Shown: positions 14,441 through 28,464, numbered from the stretch's first letter. The stretch is DNA of 32,000 nucleotides from Thermofilum adornatum (GCF_000446015.1 NC_022093.1:1680001-1712000); one strand, 5' to 3'. Numbers and translations: made by a program. The notes: generated from the letters alone by a model not told the origin.

Positions 14441-15373
14441 ATGAAGGATAACAGCTTGGAAAAAATACTTGCATGGATGAACGTTATACGGGTCAAGTTC
14501 TTTGCAGCCGGCATACCACCTGTGATTCTCGGTTTTTCAGTTGCATACTATGTTGAGGGCCTATTGAGTCCCGACCTATTTTTGCTGACACTCTTCGGCA
14601 TAGTTACTGCAATGATTGGAAGCTATACTTTCAATGAATACTTTGACTTTAAAAGCGGAGTGGATCTTGTTGTCAAAGATGAACATGTCACTCCTTTCAA
14701 CTCTGGTAGCAGGGTTCTCCCCTCAGGCCTGCTGAATCCCGAAAAAGTTTTTGACGCTGGGCTCTTCGCATCTCTGGTCACGGTCGCAATAGGCCTGTAC
14801 CTAACCTGGCTCCGCGGACCACTGGTTCTAGTTTTAACAATCTTGGGAATGATAGCTGCTCTAGGCTACACGGCTCCTCCCTTTGCTTTTGCGTATCGAG
14901 GAATAGGCGAAGCAATGATAGGGCTTAGCTATGGCCCATTCATTACGCTTGGCAGCTTCCTTGTCCAGACAGGCCGCTTAGACACAGTGGCACTTCTCGC
15001 ATCTCTGGTACCAGGCTTCCTGATCACCGCGGTCATTTGGATCAACGAGTTTCCAGACTATGAAGCCGACAAAACTGTGGGTAAAAGAAACATGATCGTT
15101 AGGCTGGGAAAGAAGAAGGCTGTCCTCGTATATCCATGGTTTTTCATTTTGGCATATGCTACCGTTATTGCCGGTGTCGTTCTTAGAATGTTTCCTCTAT
15201 ATACACTGTTCTCCTTGGTTACGCTTCCCATAGCGATACAAGCTACTAGGAATGCAGTGAAGAATATTGATAATCCTCGAGGCCTCGTCCCGTCCATGAA
15301 AAACACTATTTTGGTTTTTGTTCTCACGACTTTTCTCCTATCACTTGGATTCATTGTAGCCAGGTGGATTTAG
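14441..15373 (+). CDS. UbiA-family prenyltransferase, MenA-like
   Basis: A polytopic membrane protein with NEYFDFKSGVD (NxxxDxxxD) and INEFPDYEADKTVGKRNMIVRLG (second Asp-rich motif, with a GK..T/M.VRLG tail as in MenA). Confidence 0.75.
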   Translation: MKDNSLEKILAWMNVIRVKFFAAGIPPVILGFSVAYYVEGLLSPDLFLLTLFGIVTAMIGSYTFNEYFDFKSGVDLVVKDEHVTPFNSGSRVLPSGLLNPEKVFDAGLFASLVTVAIGLYLTWLRGPLVLVLTILGMIAALGYTAPPFAFAYRGIGEAMIGLSYGPFITLGSFLVQTGRLDTVALLASLVPGFLITAVIWINEFPDYEADKTVGKRNMIVRLGKKKAVLVYPWFFILAYATVIAGVVLRMFPLYTLFSLVTLPIAIQATRNAVKNIDNPRGLVPSMKNTILVFVLTTFLLSLGFIVARWI

Positions 15374-16611
15374 TGCCAGAACGCGCTCCCCATGTTTTAC
15401 CTTTCTATATTCCTCCTACGTTGGTCTTGAGACAAGTAGGCAGTCTACTTGCTTTCAAGGAGTTGACGGGCTGGCCTGGATTGGACAGGTGGCTTCCAGA
15501 GGCCGGACTACTGTTGCGCACTGCCGCAGGGGCTATTGGCTTTGGCTGTTTCGGGATGCCTATACATCCAGTGTACGAGGTTACTGCCGCCTGTAATCTT
15601 AGGTGTAAGCACTGCCACGCCAGAGGGGGTAAACCATACCCAGACGAGCTAGACACTGAGGGAGCTAAAGAAGTAATAAGGAAGCTTGCCGAGGTTCCTG
15701 AGTTCCGCGTACTTGTCTTTACAGGTGGAGAACCACTTGTCAGGCCAGACATTTACGAGCTTATCTCTTACGCTAAGAGTCTCGGCTTCAGTGTTGTATT
15801 AGCTACAAATGCGATTCTAATCACAAAGAGCGTTTCAAAGAAATTGCGGGAACTGGGAGTTGAGGGTATAGCTGCTAGCATAGACTTTGTAAAGCCGGAG
15901 CAACACGACGAGTACCGAGGCGTGCCTGGGGCTTTTCAACGCGCCATAGAGGGAATAAAGAACGCGGCCAGCGAAGGTCTATATATCCACATAAATGTCA
16001 CGCTCTCCAAGCTGAACCTCGACCAATTAGAGGACTTGATGCGGCTTTCTGACAGGCTTGGGGCCTATGTCGTGTTTCTCTACCAGCTGTTGCCGTTTGG
16101 AAGGGGAGAAGAATTAAAGAACTTGCTATTAACCCGTGAAGAATTTCTGCAGGTTATGGAGAGAGTAAAGAAAATACAGCGAGAAGTAAAGCCTGTAATC
16201 GTGCCAGTAGGTCTGCCCGAATACTTCGCCTATCTCCTTAAAGATTCTCCACTGTTCAAAATCTATTCCCCATTCTTTAAGGGATGTAGCGCGGGCAGTG
16301 GAATGTTCTACATAAAGCCCAACGGCGACGTCTGGCCATGTGCATTCGTCCCCATAAAAGCTGGAAACCTGCGGGAACAGTCAGCACTCGAAATATGGAG
16401 AAACAGCCCAGTATTCAGGGCTCTTAGAGACAGAAGTAATCTTAAGGGTCCATGTGCCACTTGTAAGTATAGGGACGTGTGTGGGGGCTGCAGAGCTAGA
16501 ACCCTTGCATTAACAGGAGACCTATTTGCCTCGGATCCAATGTGTCCACTCGCAAGTCACGAGACACAATTAAAGCTGATAAGAACCCCAGACATCAAGA
16601 CGATACAATAG
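15364..16611 (+). CDS. Radical SAM enzyme with C-terminal SPASM-type Cys cluster
   Basis: CNLRCKHCHA (CxxxCxxC), FTGGEPL, and C-terminal CAFVP...CATCKYRDVCGGCRAR. The GTG at 15364 overlaps the prenyltransferase stop by 10 nt. An alternative ATG at 15556 would remove 64 aa. Confidence 0.8.
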   Translation: MDLVPERAPHVLPFYIPPTLVLRQVGSLLAFKELTGWPGLDRWLPEAGLLLRTAAGAIGFGCFGMPIHPVYEVTAACNLRCKHCHARGGKPYPDELDTEGAKEVIRKLAEVPEFRVLVFTGGEPLVRPDIYELISYAKSLGFSVVLATNAILITKSVSKKLRELGVEGIAASIDFVKPEQHDEYRGVPGAFQRAIEGIKNAASEGLYIHINVTLSKLNLDQLEDLMRLSDRLGAYVVFLYQLLPFGRGEELKNLLLTREEFLQVMERVKKIQREVKPVIVPVGLPEYFAYLLKDSPLFKIYSPFFKGCSAGSGMFYIKPNGDVWPCAFVPIKAGNLREQSALEIWRNSPVFRALRDRSNLKGPCATCKYRDVCGGCRARTLALTGDLFASDPMCPLASHETQLKLIRTPDIKTIQ

Positions 16612-17602: not shown

Positions 17603-18079
17603 CTATCCTAGCTTCTTAACAAGGATTATATCGTCCTCGTAAGCATAGAGCGGCCCCTCAAGCTCCTCGAATTCTTTTTCTCCCCGCCTATACAGTGAAT
17701 AGCCCATTTTCGTGAACATACCTATCGAGGCCAAATTGTCTCGCCTAGTGCTGGCCGCAGAATATCTACAGCCATGTTCCCTGAATATCTTTTCTGCCTC
17801 GGCTACAAGGTTTTTACCTATGCCCCTGCCCCTGTAGCCGGGGTCTACGGCTATAAAGCTTATTACGCTTATCTTCCCGTGGGTTTTAGTCTCCTTTGTG
17901 TATATTTCGGCCACACCTACGACTCGCCCATCCATAATGGCAACGAGAGTGTCTAGCCTGCCGAGGAGGAGCTCGCTCCAATACCTATAGGAGCCAGTAA
18001 AAGACTTTCTGAGTATTTCTTTTGCCTGTTTTAGGTCGCCCTTCTCGGCAAACCTTACCTGAAGACCAGTTAAAGCCAC
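17603..18079 (-). CDS. GNAT-family N-acetyltransferase
   Basis: VDPGYRGRGIGKNLV is the acetyl-CoA-binding motif A (Q/RxxGxG/A). At 158 aa, the size fits. Confidence 0.85.
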   Translation of the reverse strand: MALTGLQVRFAEKGDLKQAKEILRKSFTGSYRYWSELLLGRLDTLVAIMDGRVVGVAEIYTKETKTHGKISVISFIAVDPGYRGRGIGKNLVAEAEKIFREHGCRYSAASTRRDNLASIGMFTKMGYSLYRRGEKEFEELEGPLYAYEDDIILVKKLG

Positions 18080-19514: not shown

Positions 19515-20042
19515 TCAGGGATCGAGTGATTTCTCCTTGCTCTCTAGGATTTTAATGAACTTTTCATGAATTAGCTTGGCTTGTGGTTTAAATTCTTCCG
19601 GCATATATGGGTCTTCTAATTGACTTCTGATCCTCTCCTTTGCCCAAGCGTAATCTCCTCTCTGCAGTGCGTATTCTATTTCCTTTTCGAGTGCAATATA
19701 GTGAGTTGTGTAAACTAGTGTTCTGGGAGAATCAACAATTATCCTCCTGTGAATTTTAAAACCCCTTTTCTTCCATTCATTTATCTCAACGAGCTCGTGT
19801 ATCAGAAGATATTCGTTTTCGAGAACATCTCTAAAGTTAACCTTGTCCTCAGTGTAGGTATCAGTAGACATGTAGTCGACAAGATCTTGAGCAGAGACAT
19901 CCAGGTGATAGTTAAGTGACTCTAAAATCCTCCGGGCTTTCTCAATTTTACTCTCAATTTCCTCAAGCATTGATCTCGCCTCTAACGTGCCAGTAGCAAT
20001 GAGCTCTTCATTTGTTATCCCAAAAAAGTTCACCTGATTCAT
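19515..20042 (-). CDS. Hypothetical alpha-helical protein (175 aa), overlaps 3' end of ATPase gene
   Basis: The ATG at 20042 (MNQVNFFGITNEE) is preferred over 20087. It overlaps the upstream gene by 35 nt. It contains LIHELVEINEW and RTLVYTTH (an Rx6H spacing compatible with, but not proof of, a HEPN-type motif). Confidence 0.5.
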   Translation of the reverse strand: MNQVNFFGITNEELIATGTLEARSMLEEIESKIEKARRILESLNYHLDVSAQDLVDYMSTDTYTEDKVNFRDVLENEYLLIHELVEINEWKKRGFKIHRRIIVDSPRTLVYTTHYIALEKEIEYALQRGDYAWAKERIRSQLEDPYMPEEFKPQAKLIHEKFIKILESKEKSLDP

Positions 20043-21306
20043 GAGCCTTCTGTGTGGAGATTTTTGTCTCGCTGACCATCTTTGCAAGAGAGACTAATTC
20101 GTCGGGACCAAGCGTCTCAGCGCCCTCTATTTCTGGAGGTTTTTCTTTCAGGCTGATGAGTCCCGCGTGGGGTATTCCTAGGGAGTGTATTCTTTCAAGG
20201 GCTCTCTTGGCCTCGTTTTGCTCAATGCTACCTAGCTTTACCTCGTAGCCTGCGATGGGCCTTTTACCCTTAAGTACAATTACGTCTACGTCTCCAAACG
20301 GTGAAACATAAAACCCTGCTACACCGGAGTACCTTTCAGCCATTAGCTCGGCAATACATGCTTCTGCCTCTCTTCCCAGTGCCGTGTTTGCCGCCTCCGG
20401 GGTAGCCTGGTAGCCCTCACTCACCGAAAATTTTTGATCCAAATAGTAGACCAGCGACAGTAGTGGTGAAGAGTGCCTGTAGTAGACCTTGGCTCCTCCA
20501 GATCTCCAAGCCTTTAACTTCCTGACTAATCCCATTTTCACCATTCGCTCAAGTATACCCACAACAGCAGAGGCTCCACCCTCCACGAGCCCCTTAGGAG
20601 CCAAGACGCCCGCGATTTCGGCCGGCTTCCAATAACCCTCTGCGAGCAACCTCAGCACTGCTTCATACAGCGTTGTGAGTCTCCTCTCTTCCTCCACGAA
20701 CACCTCTCCAACAAGACCCATACTTGCAAGCGCCAGCCTCCCAGCGTTTTCAGCAATGAAAACCGCAGGGGGCAGGCTTAGGTCAACAAAGGGGACAATC
20801 CATGGATCCCTAACAATTATTGCCCAAAGCAGTGCTTTTTCAGGATTAAGCCTTTCCACAAGAGAAGAAACTGCATCCGCATAGCTTACAACATCGACCC
20901 GGAGAGGATTCACCAGGCCCAGCAGGGGGCTCCTCCTGGAAAAAACCTTCTCAACAACACCAAAACTTGACCCAGAAAGCACGAGCCTGCCTAAAGGGTG
21001 CGCAAGGGCCAGCATGTCCCAGTAGTTTTCAGGAAGCCTCTGGAACTCATCAATGACTACGCACTCCCCCCTTCTGAGGGCATCTACGACACGCTGAAGC
21101 CCCTCCTCTAAACCTGTCTTCTCGATGCCCCCATTGCTTTCAAGAAAAATCTCCCTAGACCTCGTTACAGTTGCATAAATGCTCCAAGAAAGCTCCCTTC
21201 TAAGCAGAAAAGTTTTACCAACCTTTCTCCTACCATATACAAGTAGCCAGCCCCTCGCCTTCTTAAGTTCCTCAGCTTCTCTCCGCCTAAGCACAATTTG
21301 CTCCAT
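20008..21306 (-). CDS. Archaeal ATPase (Arch_ATPase-type P-loop) with wHTH and C-terminal DUF234 / PD-(D/E)xK-like module
   Basis: Walker A YGRRKVGKTFLL and Walker B VVIDEFQRL. The C-terminus FGDVDVIVLKGKRPIAGYEVKLG has D...E-x-K spacing typical of DUF234 restriction-endonuclease-like domains. Confidence 0.8.
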   Translation of the reverse strand: MEQIVLRRREAEELKKARGWLLVYGRRKVGKTFLLRRELSWSIYATVTRSREIFLESNGGIEKTGLEEGLQRVVDALRRGECVVIDEFQRLPENYWDMLALAHPLGRLVLSGSSFGVVEKVFSRRSPLLGLVNPLRVDVVSYADAVSSLVERLNPEKALLWAIIVRDPWIVPFVDLSLPPAVFIAENAGRLALASMGLVGEVFVEEERRLTTLYEAVLRLLAEGYWKPAEIAGVLAPKGLVEGGASAVVGILERMVKMGLVRKLKAWRSGGAKVYYRHSSPLLSLVYYLDQKFSVSEGYQATPEAANTALGREAEACIAELMAERYSGVAGFYVSPFGDVDVIVLKGKRPIAGYEVKLGSIEQNEAKRALERIHSLGIPHAGLISLKEKPPEIEGAETLGPDELVSLAKMVSETKISTQKAHESGELFWDNK

Positions 21307-21420: not shown

Positions 21421-22092
21421 CTACTCTTCTTTGAACTGGCTCTCCACTTCTCTTCTGAGGGATTCCTGGAGCTCCTTGATTTTCCTCGCTTGGTCCAGTG
21501 CCCTTTGCACCCAGTCTTTGCTTGCCTCAATGCCCTTGGACACGAAGAATGCTACAGCCTCGCTTCTAGTCCTGAATATGCCCGCCTGGACGAGCTCGTC
21601 TATAATTTCGAGGTCTTTCCTGTTTATTCTCGCCGAGACAATGTTGGGGGTCTTGCCAATTGTTTTGAATGTTTCTTCTAGGCCTTTCGTGACGGAGTCT
21701 ATTGCTTGACCTATAATCACGCCAATATTCTCTAGGCTCTTAGAAATCGTGCTGAGTGACTGCGATATTTGTGACTCGAACTGTGAGGGCTTCGAAAGCT
21801 TCTGCGAGATTTTCTCTAGGGAAGACTTTATCTCCCTGAATTTCTCCTCGAATATTTTTTCGAGCTCTCGCTGTGTAGCCTCGTCGCTTGTCTTGGCTTT
21901 CTCGCGGAACTTTTCGAATGACGCCTGAAAATCACTCATCATGCTTGTGGATTCCTGTTTCCAAAGATTGTATGCTTCCTGGGTTTTTCCCTCCGCAACC
22001 AGCCTATCTATACTAGCGAGCAAGTCGTTTAGCCTTGTTTCAATGTTTTTCAGCATTTGTTCTAGTTCGTTTTTTAGTTCTTCTCCTGACAT
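21421..22092 (-). CDS. Coiled-coil protein with C-terminal ribbon-helix-helix (CopG-like) domain
   Basis: The N-terminal 150 aa or so are heptad-rich and charged. NIVSARINRKDLEIIDELVQAGIFRTRSEAVAFFVSKGI is an RHH pattern. It has its own A/T boxes (cttatatagg, tataatttatac) 10-35 nt upstream and an oligo-T tract downstream. Confidence 0.6.
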   Translation of the reverse strand: MSGEELKNELEQMLKNIETRLNDLLASIDRLVAEGKTQEAYNLWKQESTSMMSDFQASFEKFREKAKTSDEATQRELEKIFEEKFREIKSSLEKISQKLSKPSQFESQISQSLSTISKSLENIGVIIGQAIDSVTKGLEETFKTIGKTPNIVSARINRKDLEIIDELVQAGIFRTRSEAVAFFVSKGIEASKDWVQRALDQARKIKELQESLRREVESQFKEE

Positions 22093-22133
22093 GTATTTTC
22101 GTATAAATTATACACAAATACCTATATAAGTTT

Positions 22134-23597
22134 TTACGTTTCCTTTATCCTCTCTATCTCTTCTCTTGTCATCGGCACCCACTTGTCGCCTACTAGCTTC
22201 ACATATCCCAGCGTATATTTCTCGTATAGGTCGAGAACCTTTCTCCTCAGCCACTTGTGCGGTATAAAGGTGGGCGTAGCATTGATGTTGTCGAAGTGTA
22301 GCATCTCGACGTGCCACACTGGCTCCGCTTTTCCCTGCTTCCACACGCCCCTCTGTGTAGCAAGGTATATCGAGTGCTGTATCAGTGATGGCTCTAGCCT
22401 TATTAGTCCCCTGGCTATTCTCTGCGGCAGGGTCTCTATGTGTTTGTCTTCGTATCTTAGGAGCCTAGGGTCTATTCCGACTGCTAGGAGCATTAGCTGT
22501 ACCCCGTTGCACTTGAAACAGGTTCCGCATGGCTTTACTACGCCGTTCTCTATGTGTGTGGAGTGGCAACTAGTTATAAGTGGGATTAGGTCTGGATACC
22601 TGTCTTTGAATATTTTCAGCATGCTTATGGGCGTCAGTGGCCTCAGTGGGGACCACTGCTTTATGTCGAGCCCCTTGGCCTTGAAGTAGCCTGTCATGTA
22701 GTTGTCGAAGTCTAGGCTCTGGTCAAAGGTTGCATAGTAGTGCCTTATGCCCTTGTACTCGAATGTGAGGCCGGATGGGTCGTCGAACTCGTTGCCCATA
22801 ACTATGTTGCCGACCCCATGTTTAAGCGCTATTGGTATAAATGAGAGGATATAGTTAGCGTACCAGAAGAGCCTTACGGGGTAGATTTCCCTGTTTTTCC
22901 TCCAGTAGTATGGGACAACTATCTTCATGTTTTTCTCGATAAAGGCAAAAAGCCTGTCAATGTTGCTCCAGACCTTCCTGGTGTTTGGGTCCCTCCTCGC
23001 CAGCTCCCTGTACGCTGTTAGGGCTGTCCACCAGTGTCTCCCAGACTCGTTGAGGAAGAATGAGTAAACATTGCAGCCCATTTCTCGGAGCAACCCATAC
23101 GTGAAGAGACTTTCCTTTCCACCTGACGACATTACGCCGCAGCTCTTCTCGTCGAGCTGGACGGGGCCAATATCTTTGCTAGTTATTTTCTCGGCCGAGA
23201 CGTGTGCCTTCGGCTCTGCGTCTTCCGGGGTTACGTCTTCTGGATTGGGAAGGTACTCTTCCCTTATGAGCCCAGTCCGGTTGACTATCCTATTTACAAA
23301 TATGTCTCTTGCCGTTACACGTGACATGTCCTCGAAAAACTTCAAGTCTACCTGGTCGAGCTCGAGGTCAAGCTTTATCTCGTCGCTGAACAAGGTATAG
23401 TTTATGGCTGGGACAATGCCGGCAACATTGAAGAAGGCTGATAGGACCCTTTGGTCGATGTCTTCGGGATAAACGTTGACTAATTCATACTCTTTCCTGA
23501 GCCCGTCGAACTCCAGCGTGTATTTGACGCTAGTCCTTCTACCCTTTACCTCGGCTGGACCAACGATGATCCTGTCGAAGCACTTCAGATTTACCAA
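22134..23597 (-). CDS. QueC-like PP-loop ATP pyrophosphatase superfamily protein with unassigned N- and C-terminal extensions
   Basis: CGVMSSGGKES (an SGGxDS-type PP-loop with E in place of D), VMGNEFDD, and TSCHS...PCGTCFKCNG parallel the QueC layout (PP-loop, G.n.D, SCY...CGxCxxC). About 150 aa N-terminal and about 90 aa C-terminal carry no motif I recognise. The TTG start at 23597 lies 4 nt after the upstream stop, within TAGAGGATTG. Confidence 0.55.
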   Translation of the reverse strand: MVNLKCFDRIIVGPAEVKGRRTSVKYTLEFDGLRKEYELVNVYPEDIDQRVLSAFFNVAGIVPAINYTLFSDEIKLDLELDQVDLKFFEDMSRVTARDIFVNRIVNRTGLIREEYLPNPEDVTPEDAEPKAHVSAEKITSKDIGPVQLDEKSCGVMSSGGKESLFTYGLLREMGCNVYSFFLNESGRHWWTALTAYRELARRDPNTRKVWSNIDRLFAFIEKNMKIVVPYYWRKNREIYPVRLFWYANYILSFIPIALKHGVGNIVMGNEFDDPSGLTFEYKGIRHYYATFDQSLDFDNYMTGYFKAKGLDIKQWSPLRPLTPISMLKIFKDRYPDLIPLITSCHSTHIENGVVKPCGTCFKCNGVQLMLLAVGIDPRLLRYEDKHIETLPQRIARGLIRLEPSLIQHSIYLATQRGVWKQGKAEPVWHVEMLHFDNINATPTFIPHKWLRRKVLDLYEKYTLGYVKLVGDKWVPMTREEIERIKET

Positions 23598-23601
23598 TCC
23601 T

Positions 23602-24663
23602 CTACACCTTTAGCTCGGGGAAATCTCTCAGCATCAAGTCGACGATTCTGCCTACCCCTTCCAGTAGCGGGATGACCGTTGGTATGCCTGTCTCCTTCTC
23701 GATTCTCTCTTTTTCTCGGAGCGCCTCCTCTCTGCCGAGGCCCTCGGTGTTGATCGTTATTGCATATACCCTTCTATCCGTTATGAGCTCCACGAGCCTT
23801 AGGAACTTTTCCAGGGGAGGCATGGGGTACTCTGGGAAGCCGTCTAGATGCTTCCTTCCAGGGGCATGCTGGAGAACGACTACTTCAGGCTTCAGGAGGT
23901 TGAGGATCTCGTAGCTACCTGGAAAAACTGGATGCAAAGGCGACCCCTGGCCGGGCACAACGATTACCTTGGGTTTTTCCTCTACGTATGCCCTCAAGAC
24001 AGTTTCCTCGAGAACCCCCGGGATAAAGTCGTTGATTACGCTGTCGAGAACAAACACGTATTTTGCACCCTGCATCCACGCGGTCTGGCCGGTCCCCACG
24101 AATACGGCCTTTACACTCCTCTTATTAAGCTCGTCTGTAATCATGTGGGCTACGGTCCTCTTGCCTATCGCTGAGTCAGTCCCGATAACTACGACCTTGA
24201 GGGCTTTGACTTCTCTTATCCTGCCAGTATAGAAGACACGTTTATTATAGTAGATCTTCCTGACATCAATTATTTCTGCGCCGTGCTCCCTTGCGAGCCG
24301 CATTAACTCTGGGTCATCGCTCAGAAACTCGTGGAGACCAGAAACTATGCTTAGACCCTTCTTCAGGGCCTCTTTCACTATGGCCCTATAGTTTTCTGGC
24401 AACTTTCCGCCGGCTGTAGCGACGCCTATTATTAGAAACCTTGTGTCTGGGTGCTCTCTTAAGGCTTCCCCTAGTGAAGAATAGATCTTTATCCCCCTAG
24501 GCTTGCCGTCCAGCACTTCTCCCGCGTCCCTTCCAGCCAGCGTGCTGTCAATAACTCCAACGATTTTGTATCGAAGGCTTTTCCTCACGAGGCCGTGCGC
24601 CGTCTTGCCGTCTGTCGAAGAATACAAACCCTCGGCCAGTACTACTGCTTTTCCCTCCTCCAT
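23602..24663 (-). CDS. DUF1611-family protein (DgcN-like)
   Basis: VVLAEGLYSSTDGKTAHGLVR, VSGLHEFLSDDPEL, IGTDSAIGKRT, VGTGQTAWMQG and PGQGSPLHP match the conserved blocks of the DUF1611 family as I recall them. Confidence 0.8.
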   Translation of the reverse strand: MEEGKAVVLAEGLYSSTDGKTAHGLVRKSLRYKIVGVIDSTLAGRDAGEVLDGKPRGIKIYSSLGEALREHPDTRFLIIGVATAGGKLPENYRAIVKEALKKGLSIVSGLHEFLSDDPELMRLAREHGAEIIDVRKIYYNKRVFYTGRIREVKALKVVVIGTDSAIGKRTVAHMITDELNKRSVKAVFVGTGQTAWMQGAKYVFVLDSVINDFIPGVLEETVLRAYVEEKPKVIVVPGQGSPLHPVFPGSYEILNLLKPEVVVLQHAPGRKHLDGFPEYPMPPLEKFLRLVELITDRRVYAITINTEGLGREEALREKERIEKETGIPTVIPLLEGVGRIVDLMLRDFPELKV

Positions 24664-25622
24664 CTCCCAGTAATCACCGCTACGACTGGCCCGTCGACCT
24701 GCTCCCGAGACAGGAAGTCCCTCACAGCCAGAAGGGAAGAAGACGACGCTGGGAGAGCGTTTACCCCCTCGACAGCCCTCAGCAACAGCGACATCTCGAC
24801 CATCTCATCGTCCATGTAGGCGTAGGCGACGCCTTCAGAGTGGTATATAGCCATGAGTGCTTCCTTTGCGTTTAGGGACTGTATTGCGACCAGGGGCTCG
24901 TTGACAGGGGTCTCCCTTGCAAGGTACGTGTTCACTGGCAGTGGGTCTATGGAGCCCATTAGCCACGAGTATACAAGCTGGTTAACATGTATAGTGCTCG
25001 CCGCTATGATTCTAGGAATCCTCGTCGTGTCTCCCGCCTTGTACATCCTCCTAAAACCGTTATAGACGCCTACCAGCGTGGTTCCGTTGCCCACAGGTAT
25101 AGCTATCGCCGCAGGCGCGTCGCCGAGCTGTTCAACTATCTCACGGGCTATCTCAGAGTAGGCGTCGAGGCTCGCGTGGTCATTTATGCTCCCAGGGTTA
25201 GCGTCGTACCATCCATTCGCCTTCGCGGCCTCGACACTCAGCGATACGGCTGTCTCGTATGGGCCCTCAACAAGGACTACCTTTGCTCCGTATCTCTTCA
25301 TCTCGGAGACCCTGCTGTGCTTGTACCCTTTGGGTACATAGATAACAGCCTTGACGCCGGCCCTCCGTGCATAGTACGCTATGGCTGCACCATAGTTCCC
25401 ACAAGTGCCAACAGTAATCGTGTCATAGCCGTTTACCAAGACCTCCCTCACGTGTGAAATGGCCGCTCTATCCTTATGTGTGCCTGTCGGGTTTGCACCC
25501 TCATATTTTAGGTAAACTGGGGCACCATCAAAGCCCAACAATTTCTTGATAGAAGTCAGCCGAATAAGCGGCGTCGCTACCAGTAACAGTTTACTACTCG
25601 ATGAGTCCTCCTCCACCTTCAC
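24642..25622 (-). CDS. Pyridoxal-phosphate-dependent enzyme, fold type II (threonine synthase/cysteine synthase-like)
   Basis: TPLIRL...YLKYEGANPTGTHKDRAA contains the PLP-lysine motif, and VGTCGNYGAAIAYYA and PVGNGTTLVG are also present. GTG start at 25622. It overlaps the DUF1611 gene by 22 nt. Confidence 0.8.
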   Translation of the reverse strand: MKVEEDSSSSKLLLVATPLIRLTSIKKLLGFDGAPVYLKYEGANPTGTHKDRAAISHVREVLVNGYDTITVGTCGNYGAAIAYYARRAGVKAVIYVPKGYKHSRVSEMKRYGAKVVLVEGPYETAVSLSVEAAKANGWYDANPGSINDHASLDAYSEIAREIVEQLGDAPAAIAIPVGNGTTLVGVYNGFRRMYKAGDTTRIPRIIAASTIHVNQLVYSWLMGSIDPLPVNTYLARETPVNEPLVAIQSLNAKEALMAIYHSEGVAYAYMDDEMVEMSLLLRAVEGVNALPASSSSLLAVRDFLSREQVDGPVVAVITGRWRREKQ

Positions 25623-25834: not shown

Positions 25835-26515
25835 ATGAATAGATTGGTAAATATGATTGGAACCATAACCAACACAATAACGGTTATCCTCGGCTCGCTC
25901 GCCGGGCTCCTCCTCAGAAGAAACATATCCCCAGAAAAGACAACCTTCATAACAGACGCCCTCGGCCTATTCACGGTCGCAATAGGCATACAGATGTCCC
26001 TCCAGACAAAAAACCCAATAATACTCGTAGCCTCCCTACTGGTCGGAACCTTCATTGGAGAAATAGCAGGCATAGAGCACAAGCTCGAAAGGCTCTCAGA
26101 AAAAATCTCGAGGTCCAGCTCCCAGAGCATAGTCGACGGAATGCTCACAGCCTTCCTAACATTCTGCGTCGGGCCAATGACTATAGTAGGCTCAATAAAG
26201 GACGGCCTCGGTGACCCAAGCATCCTACTCGCAAAGTCAGTAATGGACGGGGTAGCCTCGATAGCCTTCGCGGCAAGCCTAGGCATAGGAGTCCTACTAA
26301 GCTCAGTGCTCGTCCTAGCCTTCCAGGGATCCCTAGCAGTATTCGGCGCACTCACAGGCACAATGCTACCGCAAAAAGCAATAGCAGAACTTACAGCGTC
26401 TGGAGGAGTCCTCCTAATAGGCGTAGGCATCAACCTCCTAAAACTCAAAAAGATACGCGTAGCCAACATGCTCCCCACACTACTCTTCTCCCCCCTACTA
26501 GCACTATACTTCTAG
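25835..26515 (+). CDS. DUF554-family membrane protein (YdfK/YqgA-like)
   Basis: MIGTITNTITVILGSLAGLLL..., a polytopic Gly/Ala/Leu-rich protein with the repeated half-structure typical of DUF554. The start is ATG 25835 or 25853. Confidence 0.75.
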   Translation: MNRLVNMIGTITNTITVILGSLAGLLLRRNISPEKTTFITDALGLFTVAIGIQMSLQTKNPIILVASLLVGTFIGEIAGIEHKLERLSEKISRSSSQSIVDGMLTAFLTFCVGPMTIVGSIKDGLGDPSILLAKSVMDGVASIAFAASLGIGVLLSSVLVLAFQGSLAVFGALTGTMLPQKAIAELTASGGVLLIGVGINLLKLKKIRVANMLPTLLFSPLLALYF

Positions 26516-27273: not shown

Positions 27274-28464
27274 ATGAAGGACAAGAGCCTGGGCTTAAGG
27301 GCAGTGATAATCTTCATTATTGCCCTGGCTCTGGCGCAGTCCTTAACCATATACGCAGTGCCTTGGAACTACAGGCGTAACTTTGTTCTAAGCGATGACA
27401 CTCAGCCAGATTCGCCAAGTAAACCACTACTACAACCTGTTCCACCTCCAATAATAAATCCAATAACTCCTACTATTCCAACTGGTCCATCTACCCCAGT
27501 CGGTCCCCAGACGCCCACAGGTCCAAGCTCCCCCACTTCTCCAAAGCCAACTTCACCACCAGGGCAAAAGCCGGCCCAGCCAGGAAACCAGCCTTCCCAG
27601 CTCCCAAAGCCAACCCAGCCAGGACAACAGCCCTCCCAACTTCCAACCCCCACCAATCCATCAACATTACCACCCTCACCAGTAAACCCAGTCCCCAGAG
27701 AGGCGACCGTTGAGGGCGTGAAATACATAATCAGGCTCAGTAGCGATAACGCAGAGATCTTGAAAGATGTGCTTGCAGGGAAGGGCATTAAAGTTGAGGA
27801 ACTAAAGCCTGAAGAGAAGAGGATAAAAATTGATAATCCCGATGAGGAAGTGGAGAAAGTGGCGCGGAGGCTACAAGAGACTGGGCTCTACGACAAGCTC
27901 GATAGAGTCCTTCGGGAATTATACTACACCACACTCGAAAAAGTCCTCAAAACAGCCAAGTGGGGTATACGTGAGCATGATGGGCGCATAGGTTCGGCCA
28001 GAGCCGAGCTTAAAGCTGCTTATGACTTAGCGAATGATTTCCCGCGTGCTGTCAAGCAGATGATACAAGACGGCATCCTCCAAAAGCAGGGCAAGGCTGT
28101 AGTCAGATGGTTCATAAACACTGGAGCCAGAAACTTTATAAGTGAGACCGCTCGGGCAAAGTTTGATGTTGCTCGCGATTTGATTATTGAGCTTGCAAGA
28201 CTCCTCGGTGTCTCTGTGGAGGAGACAACCGAAGATGAGGTTCTAACGGGGTTGATAGCGATAATACCCAAAGATATGTTGTCCAAGTTGCCCAGAGATA
28301 GAAGCACCACTATAAGCGTTGAGGGGCTTACCTTAGAGATTACACCAGTTGCAAAGTTCAAGACCGTGGGAAAGCCAGTGGCTTGCCTCAACTTCGGCGA
28401 GAAGGTCTACTGCTTCGACCAGAATGGTAATGAGGTAAACCCAGCCAGCGTGGTAGTCAGGTAA
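27274..28464 (+). CDS. Secreted/anchored protein with long Pro-rich linker, function unknown
   Basis: N-terminal anchor (AVIIFIIALALAQSL), about 100 aa of P/T/Q/S-rich sequence, then a globular domain of about 250 aa with no motif I recognise. Confidence 0.6.
   Translation: MKDKSLGLRAVIIFIIALALAQSLTIYAVPWNYRRNFVLSDDTQPDSPSKPLLQPVPPPIINPITPTIPTGPSTPVGPQTPTGPSSPTSPKPTSPPGQKPAQPGNQPSQLPKPTQPGQQPSQLPTPTNPSTLPPSPVNPVPREATVEGVKYIIRLSSDNAEILKDVLAGKGIKVEELKPEEKRIKIDNPDEEVEKVARRLQETGLYDKLDRVLRELYYTTLEKVLKTAKWGIREHDGRIGSARAELKAAYDLANDFPRAVKQMIQDGILQKQGKAVVRWFINTGARNFISETARAKFDVARDLIIELARLLGVSVEETTEDEVLTGLIAIIPKDMLSKLPRDRSTTISVEGLTLEITPVAKFKTVGKPVACLNFGEKVYCFDQNGNEVNPASVVVR
27406..27699 (+). repeat. 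Pro-rich low-complexity coding repeat (imperfect KPTxPGQxPSQLP units)
   Basis: PKPTSPPGQKPAQPGNQPSQLP / KPTQPGQQPSQLP. At the DNA level, ccaaagccaac...ccagg.caa..gcc...tcccagct/aactt recurs at about 27541 and about 27604. Confidence 0.6.

Follow-up and report, generated by a model that had tools for sequence, protein, structure and literature searches.

A stretch of 32,000 nucleotides (nt) from Thermofilum adornatum (GCF_000446015.1 NC_022093.1:1680001-1712000), called the window here and used as the frame for all positions given below unless another genome or locus is named, carries on its minus strand a triad of genes coding for a fold-type II pyridoxal 5'-phosphate (PLP) enzyme (gene 1), a DUF1611 protein (gene 2), and a MurL-like PP-loop adenosine triphosphate (ATP) pyrophosphatase (gene 3). 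The triad is genuine and forms an uncharacterised operon that is conserved widely among archaea. Sequence comparisons identify the gene 3 protein as a distant homologue of MurL, which consumes ATP, with adenosine monophosphate (AMP) as a product, when it epimerises the glutamate at the C-terminus of an N-acylated substrate, and we tentatively propose, as a plausible reading that stops short of being probable, that the triad is one operon changing or fixing amino-acid stereochemistry via an N-acylated, ATP-activated intermediate. The original prediction, made from the sequence alone, knew of no characterised pathway with this combination of genes, and none was found in the searchable literature; literature searches on the archaeal gene 3 family or the cluster (DUF1611, PRK06381, MurL homologues, and QueC-like archaeal D-amino-acid literature) returned nothing.

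The three open reading frames (ORFs) are present at the positions originally predicted: gene 1 (24642-25622) codes for 326 amino acids and begins with GTG, gene 2 (23602-24663) codes for 353 amino acids and begins with ATG, and gene 3 (22134-23597) codes for 487 amino acids and begins with TTG. Direct reading of the sequence shows that the TAG stop codon of gene 1 (24644-24642) is located inside gene 2, whose ATG lies at 24663, so that the two genes overlap by 22 nt (24642-24663, minus strand), and that the TAG stop codon of gene 2 (23604-23602) is followed by AGGA (junction 23598-23604, minus strand) and then by the TTG of gene 3 at 23597. The tight coupling that had been proposed for the three genes therefore holds, and the TTG start is credible because homologues of gene 3 start at the same residue (M-x-LKCFD). 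Downstream of gene 3, a spacer of 41 nt (22093-22133, minus strand) contains the TATA-like boxes CTTATATAGG and TTTATAC and is the probable end of the operon. The next gene (21421-22092, minus strand) codes for a coiled-coil protein of 223 amino acids with a C-terminal ribbon-helix-helix (CopG-like) motif, and it is not conserved at this position in related loci; from the TATA-like boxes and this lack of conservation it follows that the operon consists of the three genes. The location of the boxes right after the last stop codon of the triad suggests a separate, possibly leaderless transcript for the 223-aa gene. Long plus-strand ORFs within the triad (22183-22689, 23071-23400, 23848-24174, and 24987-25457) were rejected as antisense shadows rather than genes, and they cluster across loci because the sense genes are conserved and for no other reason.

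Related loci were collected with one genome per GTDB species, which yielded 197 loci, the best 80 of which were fetched and 79 of which could be assessed for gene order. A DUF1611 gene is located directly upstream of the MurL-like gene and on the same strand in 72 of the 79 assessable loci, and the full order PLP-DUF1611-MurL-like is found in 51 loci. Nine loci, from Thermoplasmata, possess the adjoining DUF1611 gene with no PLP gene upstream, and seven have no adjacent DUF1611 gene, namely five from Thermofilaceae/Thermofilum and two from metagenome-assembled genomes (MAGs) labelled as Myxococcales. Carriers belong to Thermofilaceae, Desulfurococcales-like Thermoproteota, Methanodesulfokora, Conexivisphaera-type Nitrososphaeria, Thermococci, Thermoplasmata, and Bathyarchaeia, and the triad is also present in Thermofilum pendens Hrk5 (CP000505.1, ~1,484,900-1,488,400) and in Thermococcus genomes. 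Co-occurrence of the three genes, in the same order in dozens of genomes from several archaeal phyla, was thereby confirmed. DUF1611 is fused to the MurL-like protein in P0135, and the MurL-like protein is fused to a creatininase-family hydrolase in P0134, P0137, P0162, and P0169 and to a methyltransferase in P0136; a creatininase fusion is also found in the remote bacterial branch (P0273). As the MurL-like enzyme and DUF1611 are adjacent and, in P0135, fused, it is a firm conclusion that they work together.

The relationship of gene 3 to MurL is remote and was traced in several steps. The protein displayed no match to any Pfam family at E ≤ 1, QueC (PF06508) included, and the comparison of its family with the PDB by sequence gave only marginal PP-loop matches, to TtuA and Cap9 (E ~1). 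Its sole sequence-family match was to the NCBIfam model for MurL (NF041275; 16.8 bits, E 0.0019, residues 256-381), the curated cut-off of which, 700 bits, was not reached. In a database clustered at 90% identity, 149 homologues were found at E ≤ 1e-3, nearly all of them archaeal, and the gene 3 protein shares 74% identity with a T. pendens protein and 98% with a metagenomic one. A profile search of 1.8 billion representatives yielded 507 relatives, including proteins of ~455 residues that also match the MurL model. When the family of these ~455-aa proteins was compared with the archaeal gene 3 family, the two aligned from the PP-loop to the C-terminus, up to residue 460 (hhalign, 100%), and a search started from the ~455-aa family recovered proteins that score 221-345 bits on the NCBIfam MurL model, so that intermediate families match both the archaeal gene 3 and the MurL profiles. 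Direct alignment of the archaeal family with seven MurL-family proteins (hhalign, 98.3%, E 1.6e-14, 320 columns, residues 5-377) spans the N-terminal domain, the PP-loop, the NE, Q, and R blocks, and the cysteine cluster at ~19% identity, and the architecture shared at the level of the MurL superfamily (N-domain, PP-loop, and S-C...CGxCxKC) is found in gene 3. The N- and C-terminal extensions, which had been taken for novel and unassignable, are thus features of the MurL superfamily, since the N-domain aligns with MurL and the C-terminal part is common to the ~455-aa family.

At the level of fold, the predicted resemblance to QueC was borne out by structure modelling. An AlphaFold2 (AF2) model built with 28 homologues reached a predicted local distance difference test (pLDDT) score of 92, and the only significant Foldseek matches in the PDB were QatC, Cap9, and QueC (E 4e-5 to 2.5e-4), with E ~2e-4 and target-normalised template modelling (TM) scores of 0.61-0.69 for the QueC structures 2pg3 and 3bl5 and target-normalised TM scores of 0.6-0.7 for the core against QueC and Cap9. 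The modelled core is consequently that of a QueC-type PP-loop fold with a four-cysteine site, and the closest reference enzyme is MurL, not QueC, because the MurL match takes in the N-terminal domain. All motifs noted earlier in the 487-aa protein, SSGGKES, SCHS, and CGTCFKC, are present. The PP-loop SSGGKES (residues 157-163; 23109-23129, minus strand) is an SGGxDS-type loop that opens a Rossmann-like domain, as is characteristic of PP-loop ATP pyrophosphatases, has the pattern S158-G-G-K-E/D-S163 with S158, G159, G160, and S163 invariant in the 28 homologues, and aligns with the GGGKDS of MurL and with the PP-loops of TtuA and Cap9. The cysteine cluster SCHS (343-346)...CGTCFKC (357-363), located at 22509-22571 on the minus strand, contributes C344, C357, and C360, which are invariant in the same homologues, and C363, with a conservation of 90% or more. 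In alignments the cluster is matched by SCN...WCGxCxKC of MurL and CxxCxxC of Cap9, and gene 3 accordingly combines a PP-loop fold with a C-terminal four-cysteine metal site as QueC does. Only one remote gene 3 relative (P0263) matches the Pfam QueC model, with 23 bits. The N-terminal alpha/beta domain (residues 1-145; 23163-23597, minus strand) contains invariant PxxNYxLF and DIFVN blocks and has an AF2 pLDDT of 90; an RNase-H-like assignment of the isolated domain was rejected, as the Foldseek matches were weak (TM 0.35-0.41, root-mean-square deviation ~10 Å) and lacked the catalytic residues. The C-terminal helical/beta region (residues 376-487; 22137-22472, minus strand) has pLDDT values mostly above 84. 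The MurL-like enzyme can be predicted with confidence to be a carboxylate activator of the ATP-pyrophosphatase type.

Assignment of gene 2 to DUF1611 holds, as the protein carries DUF1611_N (PF17396; E 3.7e-32, 111 bits) and DUF1611 (PF07755; E 1.6e-63, 214 bits), both above the gathering scores, and the predicted blocks DGKTAHGLVR, GTDSAIGKRT, and GQGSPLHP are all present. The architecture is that of a Rossmann-like N domain followed by a P-loop C domain, the Walker-A-like P-loop GTDSAIGKRT (24154-24183, minus strand) lying within the PF07755 match, and the PDB relatives are 2g0t, 7xrj, and 2obn. The DUF1611 protein DgcN N-acetylates D-glutamate. Gene 2 scored 169 bits on the NCBIfam DgcN model (NF041892), for which the cut-off is 480 bits, and is on this score a homologue, not an orthologue, of this D-glutamate N-acetyltransferase. 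DgcN is presented in PMC12363236 as the central enzyme of a route that racemises D-acidic amino acids irreversibly.

Gene 1 matches PALP (Pfam PF00291, E 8.5e-59), and its assignment to the fold-type II PLP enzymes stands; it can be refined to that of a ThrC-family paralogue which lacks the ThrC phosphate site and has an invariant cysteine at the position of a racemase base. The PLP-lysine motif GANPTGTHKDRAA recognised in the original prediction is present at residues 42-54 (25461-25499, minus strand), and its Lys50 aligns with Lys61 of Thermus thermophilus ThrC and with Lys56 of serine racemase; K50, D51, and R52 are invariant in 43 gene 1 orthologues drawn from related loci. The substrate loop T-C-G-N-Y with Cys74 (25392-25406, minus strand) reads [TS]-C-G-N-[YF]-G throughout these orthologues, C74, G75, and N76 being invariant in 43/43. 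This loop aligns with S84-T85-G86-N87-T88 of ThrC and with S83-S84-G85-N86-H87 of human serine racemase, and Cys74 is placed opposite Ser84. In serine racemase, Ser84 is the si-face (second) catalytic base. A YDANPG block (25191-25208, minus strand), of which Y139, D140, N142, and G144 are invariant, stands in place of the ThrC phosphate-binding block N-S-V-N-P-H-R(160), and in the alignment to 1uim (T. thermophilus ThrC) the NSVNPHR-LEGQK stretch falls opposite GSINDHASLDAYS (G-S-I-N-D-H-A-S-L-D-A-Y-S), so that Arg160 is lost. In the T. thermophilus ThrC structures, the block N-S-V-N-P-H-R160-L-E-G-Q-K binds the substrate phosphate. Gene 1 scored 431 bits, above cut-off, on the NCBIfam model PRK06381 'threonine synthase', and its nearest PDB relatives are threonine synthases (~111 bits). 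However, PRK06381 is a model of the paralogue group to which gene 1 itself belongs, the score on the thrC model TIGR00260 was 102 bits and thus under the cut-off of 167 bits, and the phosphate block N-S-x-N-P-x-R-x-E-G-Q-K is replaced. Because the ThrC block is lost and the invariant Cys74 lies opposite Ser84, gene 1 is read as a ThrC-family paralogue that would have a different chemistry, possibly that of a two-base racemase.

Genes that accompany the triad in related loci vary between lineages. A dipeptide (L-Ala-D/L-Glu) epimerase of the enolase superfamily is encoded in L081, on the P0135 contig, and in ~10 Thermoplasmatales/Bathyarchaeia loci, the latter also containing a gene for an M14-like peptidase (weak match, 26.5 bits), and a beta-aspartyl-peptidase-like gene adjoins the Thermofilaceae loci that are devoid of DUF1611. 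A co-directional GNAT gene occurs in 14 loci and is found where DUF1611 is absent (L002, L005, L007, and L024), and a convergent RimI-like GNAT gene, unrelated to the co-directional group, occurs in 30 loci; a count of GNAT in about 60 loci was discarded as an artefact of single-linkage clustering that had merged these two subfamilies. Co-directional methyltransferase genes are present in L016 and L027, a PaaK-like AMP-binding ligase gene in L044, and EamA or MFS transporter genes in some Thermoplasmata and Thermococcus loci. The window holds the triad alone, without these variable partners, and its remaining flanking genes are unrelated. In other branches of the superfamily, MurL adjoins MurD2 and the relatives in L083, L086, and L087 adjoin ATP-grasp ligases; in the archaeal family this place is taken by DUF1611 or, where DUF1611 is absent, by the co-directional GNAT. 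It is firmly concluded that every branch of the superfamily neighbours a gene making an N-acyl or peptide bond. Thiolation or nucleobase conjugation, named as alternatives in the original prediction, found no support in the gene context. Remote MurL-like relatives of ~455 residues were also observed in other conserved clusters (L083 3785-7368, L086 275-5707, and L087 758-4899), one type of which combines a lysine-2,3-aminomutase-like radical SAM protein, a D-Ala-D-Ala-ligase-like ATP-grasp protein, and the MurL-like protein and another a GARS-like ATP-grasp protein, the MurL-like protein, a further ATP-grasp protein, and an ornithine/diaminopimelate decarboxylase; such clusters look like further uncharacterised ligase-plus-epimerase pathways, and one remote member (P0269) comes from a Thorarchaeota MAG.

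The earlier suggestion that the three enzymes act jointly, with ATP activation, on an amino-acid-derived molecule fits with the conserved and sometimes fused genes and with the neighbouring genes for amino-acid and peptide enzymes, and the best reading specifies it as the N-acylation of an amino acid and then its ATP-driven epimerisation or activation. In the mechanism proposed here, the DUF1611 protein would N-acylate a free amino acid, probably from acyl-CoA, and the MurL-like enzyme would adenylate the alpha-carboxylate of the N-acyl amino acid made by gene 2. This choice of substrate is based on the partnership with DUF1611, on the carboxylate-activator type of the enzyme, and on the N-acyl or peptide-bond neighbours in every branch. 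Adenylation would render the alpha-proton labile and permit inversion at the alpha-carbon, as has been proposed for MurL, possibly via an oxazolone; the N-acyl group would keep the adenylate from reacting with itself and would also make an oxazolone-type intermediate possible. Once inverted, the activated compound would be hydrolysed, and in lineages that have one a creatininase-type hydrolase may be responsible, by opening or hydrolysing either the activated or the acylated compound. The PLP enzyme, acting as a two-base racemase (Lys50/Cys74) or as a lyase, would supply the free amino acid or consume it. The route could run either from D to L, as salvage, or from L to D, as production. An independent theme of stereochemistry and D-peptides comes from the PLP enzyme, which is racemase-like, and from the neighbouring genes for a dipeptide epimerase and a peptidase. 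A wider form of this proposal is doubtful: many heterotrophic archaea (Thermofilaceae, Thermococci, Korarchaeia, Conexivisphaera-type Nitrososphaeria, Thermoplasmata, and Bathyarchaeia) would have an unrecognised one-way inversion of amino-acid chirality, driven by ATP and acyl-CoA, in which the PLP enzyme would act as a racemase-like enzyme with Cys and Lys, DUF1611 as an N-acyltransferase, and the MurL-type protein as an adenylating epimerase.

Several points weigh against the inversion of stereochemistry by the triad. The relationship to MurL is a remote one in both score and identity (16.8 bits, ~19%), and function may have diverged; the same fold serves amidation and nitrile formation in QueC and ligation to protein amines in Cap9 and QatC. 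L081, the P0135 contig, and ~10 Thermoplasmatales/Bathyarchaeia loci also hold the enolase-superfamily dipeptide/N-acyl-amino-acid epimerase, an enzyme that a gene 3 acting simply as an epimerase of N-acyl amino acids would make redundant. The methyltransferase and acyl-CoA-ligase partners look like biosynthetic tailoring enzymes, and the need for a PLP racemase beside an ATP-driven epimerase in one pathway is not obvious. Finally, the function suggested for the gene 3 family is drawn from comparison, and the activity of DgcN and the catalytic role of Ser84 from the literature.

The main rival of the stereo-inversion model is a ligase or biosynthesis model, which we consider unlikely, in which gene 3 would be a QueC/Cap9-type ligase joining an adenylate with ammonia or an amine to give an amide, or forming a nitrile, and not an epimerase, and the product would be a small N-acyl (D-)amino-acid derivative. 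Under this scheme, likewise given little weight, the PLP enzyme would racemise or build the amino acid, DUF1611 would N-acylate it, and GNAT, methyltransferase, or acyl-CoA ligase would tailor it. The fold of gene 3, nearest to those of QatC, Cap9, and QueC, and the gene order PLP, DUF1611, PP-loop, which resembles a pathway order, would both suit this model, as would the variable partners (the P0136 fusion, the methyltransferases of L016 and L027, the PaaK-like ligase of L044, and the co-directional GNAT of 14 loci), the EamA or MFS transporter close by in some lineages, and the co-occurrence of the enolase-type epimerase with gene 3. However, the nearest characterised sequence relative of gene 3 is the epimerase MurL, not QueC, and the recurrent neighbours degrade peptides or epimerise (M14 peptidase, beta-aspartyl peptidase, dipeptide epimerase, and creatininase-type hydrolase). 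We also know of no N-acyl (D-)amino-acid derivative of this sort in these archaea.

It is improbable that a cyclic amide, such as a 5-oxoproline-like lactam, is opened or formed at the expense of ATP, with gene 3 adenylating the amide or carboxylate oxygen and a creatininase-type domain hydrolysing the ring. Such a reaction would account for the creatininase-family hydrolases that, in two branches of the superfamily distant from each other, are repeatedly fused or adjacent to the PP-loop protein; members of that family act, according to their NCBIfam names, on cyclic amides, formamides, and peptide bonds, and the adenylation by QueC of its amide intermediate offers a precedent for the gene 3 step. 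However, no creatininase gene is present in the window or in most loci, a lactam would have no free amine for the DUF1611 N-acyltransferase, and the near-universal DUF1611 partner would not be accounted for.

QueC-family nucleobase or defence chemistry, that is, 7-deazaguanine synthesis or protein conjugation as by Cap9 (type IV CBASS) or QatC (QatABCD), is suggested by the best Foldseek matches and by some JGI records in which homologues are automatically named '7-cyano-7-deazaguanine synthase', but it is extremely improbable given that the window protein has no Pfam QueC match, that no QatA/B/D, CD-NTase, queuosine, or archaeosine genes were found in the window or the 80 related loci, that the neighbourhood is metabolic and syntenic across phyla, and that the N-domain and conserved blocks are common to MurL. 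Ordinary threonine biosynthesis, with gene 1 as a threonine synthase beside two unrelated genes, agrees with the PRK06381 score and the nearest solved structures but is hardly credible in view of the low thrC score, the replaced block with its lost Arg160, the fixed linkage, with overlapping reading frames, of gene 1 to its two partners in 51 loci, and the lack of other threonine-pathway genes close by in the window.

Further genes around the triad were also inspected. A DUF554 membrane protein gene (25835-26515, plus strand) is divergent from the triad, as it is in Thermofilum sp., Infirmifilum sp., and T. pendens (L001, L004, and L090), an arrangement which may reflect lineage synteny or an associated transporter. 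In T. pendens Hrk5 (L090, 8468-8980), a hydrophobic protein of 170 amino acids with no Pfam match is encoded 13 nt after the triad on the same strand, and the window has no equivalent of it. A GNAT gene located 4 kb downstream of the triad (17603-18079, minus strand) was rejected as a fourth gene, as it is no member of either GNAT group linked to the cluster (27-37 bits). At 19515-21306 (minus strand), an AAA-type ATPase (AAA_14/AAA_22) of 432 amino acids is overlapped by ~80 nt by a 190-aa ORF without family match, and both may have been inserted here because they are absent at this position in related loci. A 396-aa protein (27274-28464, plus strand) possesses an N-terminal hydrophobic segment, then a low-complexity stretch of ~90 residues rich in Pro, Thr, Ser, and Gln, and a faint DUF2067 match. 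At 14441-16611 (plus strand), the genes for a UbiA-family prenyltransferase and a radical SAM/SPASM protein overlap by 10 nt (15364-15373), a pair with a possible role in cofactor or lipid modification. The scan of the window revealed no tRNA and no Rfam family, and a scan for sigma-70 promoters and terminators gave counts at the level of shuffled sequences and is uninformative for an archaeon.

The discoverers of MurL saw no recognisable domains in it, and a review states that it "lacks known conserved domains". The present comparisons place MurL in a QueC-fold PP-loop superfamily, with a large uncharacterised archaeal branch (149 homologues, 197 loci) for which DUF1611 is the linked partner and the N-acyl amino acids are a candidate substrate class. 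We know of no other characterised ATP-dependent peptide epimerase of the MurL kind. If the proposed function is true, this so far unique chemistry would extend to a large enzyme superfamily, archaea could use or make D-amino acids, and it would be explained how peptide-fermenting and sediment archaea handle D-amino acids that stem from the cell walls of bacteria or arise when heat causes racemisation. A function would also be available for archaeal DUF1611 and for the widespread PRK06381 group mis-named "threonine synthase". As the cultured T. pendens Hrk5 and several Thermococcus species carry the cluster, the hypothesis is directly testable.

Compared with known systems, gene 1 shares with threonine synthase and serine racemase the fold-type II, the Schiff-base lysine motif, and the PLP-phosphate loop PVGNG. 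It differs in having no ThrC phosphate-binding Arg block, in having Cys, not Ser or Thr, at the position of Ser84 of serine racemase, and in its invariant YDANPG and NEPL blocks, which are seen in neither of the two. Gene 3 has the core fold, the PP-loop, and the four-cysteine site with CxxCxxC spacing in common with QueC, Cap9, and QatC, whereas it adds a 145-residue N-domain and a 110-residue C-region, shows no significant sequence match to Pfam QueC, and is found without a deazaguanine or defence gene context. Like the murein-peptide recycling genes (MpaA/YcjG and YkfA-C), ~10 Thermoplasmatales/Bathyarchaeia loci have at their flanks genes for an M14-type peptidase and for a dipeptide epimerase of the YkfB/YcjG family, but both are missing from the window and from most loci.

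MurL and gene 3 share the N-domain, the PP-loop SGGK[DE]S, the NE, Q, and R blocks, and the S-C...C-G-x-C-x-K-C cluster, and each of the two genes has a neighbour whose product forms the N-acyl or peptide bond in the presumed substrate; by analogy, an ATP-dependent, AMP-forming activation of a carboxylate is expected for gene 3. MurL itself needs ATP and Mg2+, releases AMP, converts a C-terminal residue from L to D, and is paired with MurD2 in murein-producing bacteria devoid of glutamate racemase. In contrast to MurL, gene 3 is hosted by archaea that are mostly without murein, its partner is DUF1611 and not MurD2, no Mur ligase was found as a neighbour in the window or the 80 related loci, its C-terminal region is a different one that is common instead to the ~455-aa family, and its substrate must differ. 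The DgcN-DgcA pathway of D-glutamate catabolism in marine bacteria and haloarchaea differs from the triad in that gene 2 is no DgcN orthologue (169 versus 480 bits), that the constant partner of DUF1611 in the triad is the ATP-dependent MurL-like enzyme and not an enolase-type racemase, and that a ThrC-like PLP enzyme is added. The notion of the MurL-like enzyme as a simple replacement of DgcA is weakened by clusters that contain both. Common to the two systems are a DgcN-homologous DUF1611 protein, a DgcA-related enolase-superfamily epimerase in some of the related clusters, and a predicted sequence of N-acylation followed by inversion at the alpha-carbon. Each component of the triad comes from a known superfamily, and the logic predicted for their combination resembles that of DgcN-DgcA and of MurD2-MurL.

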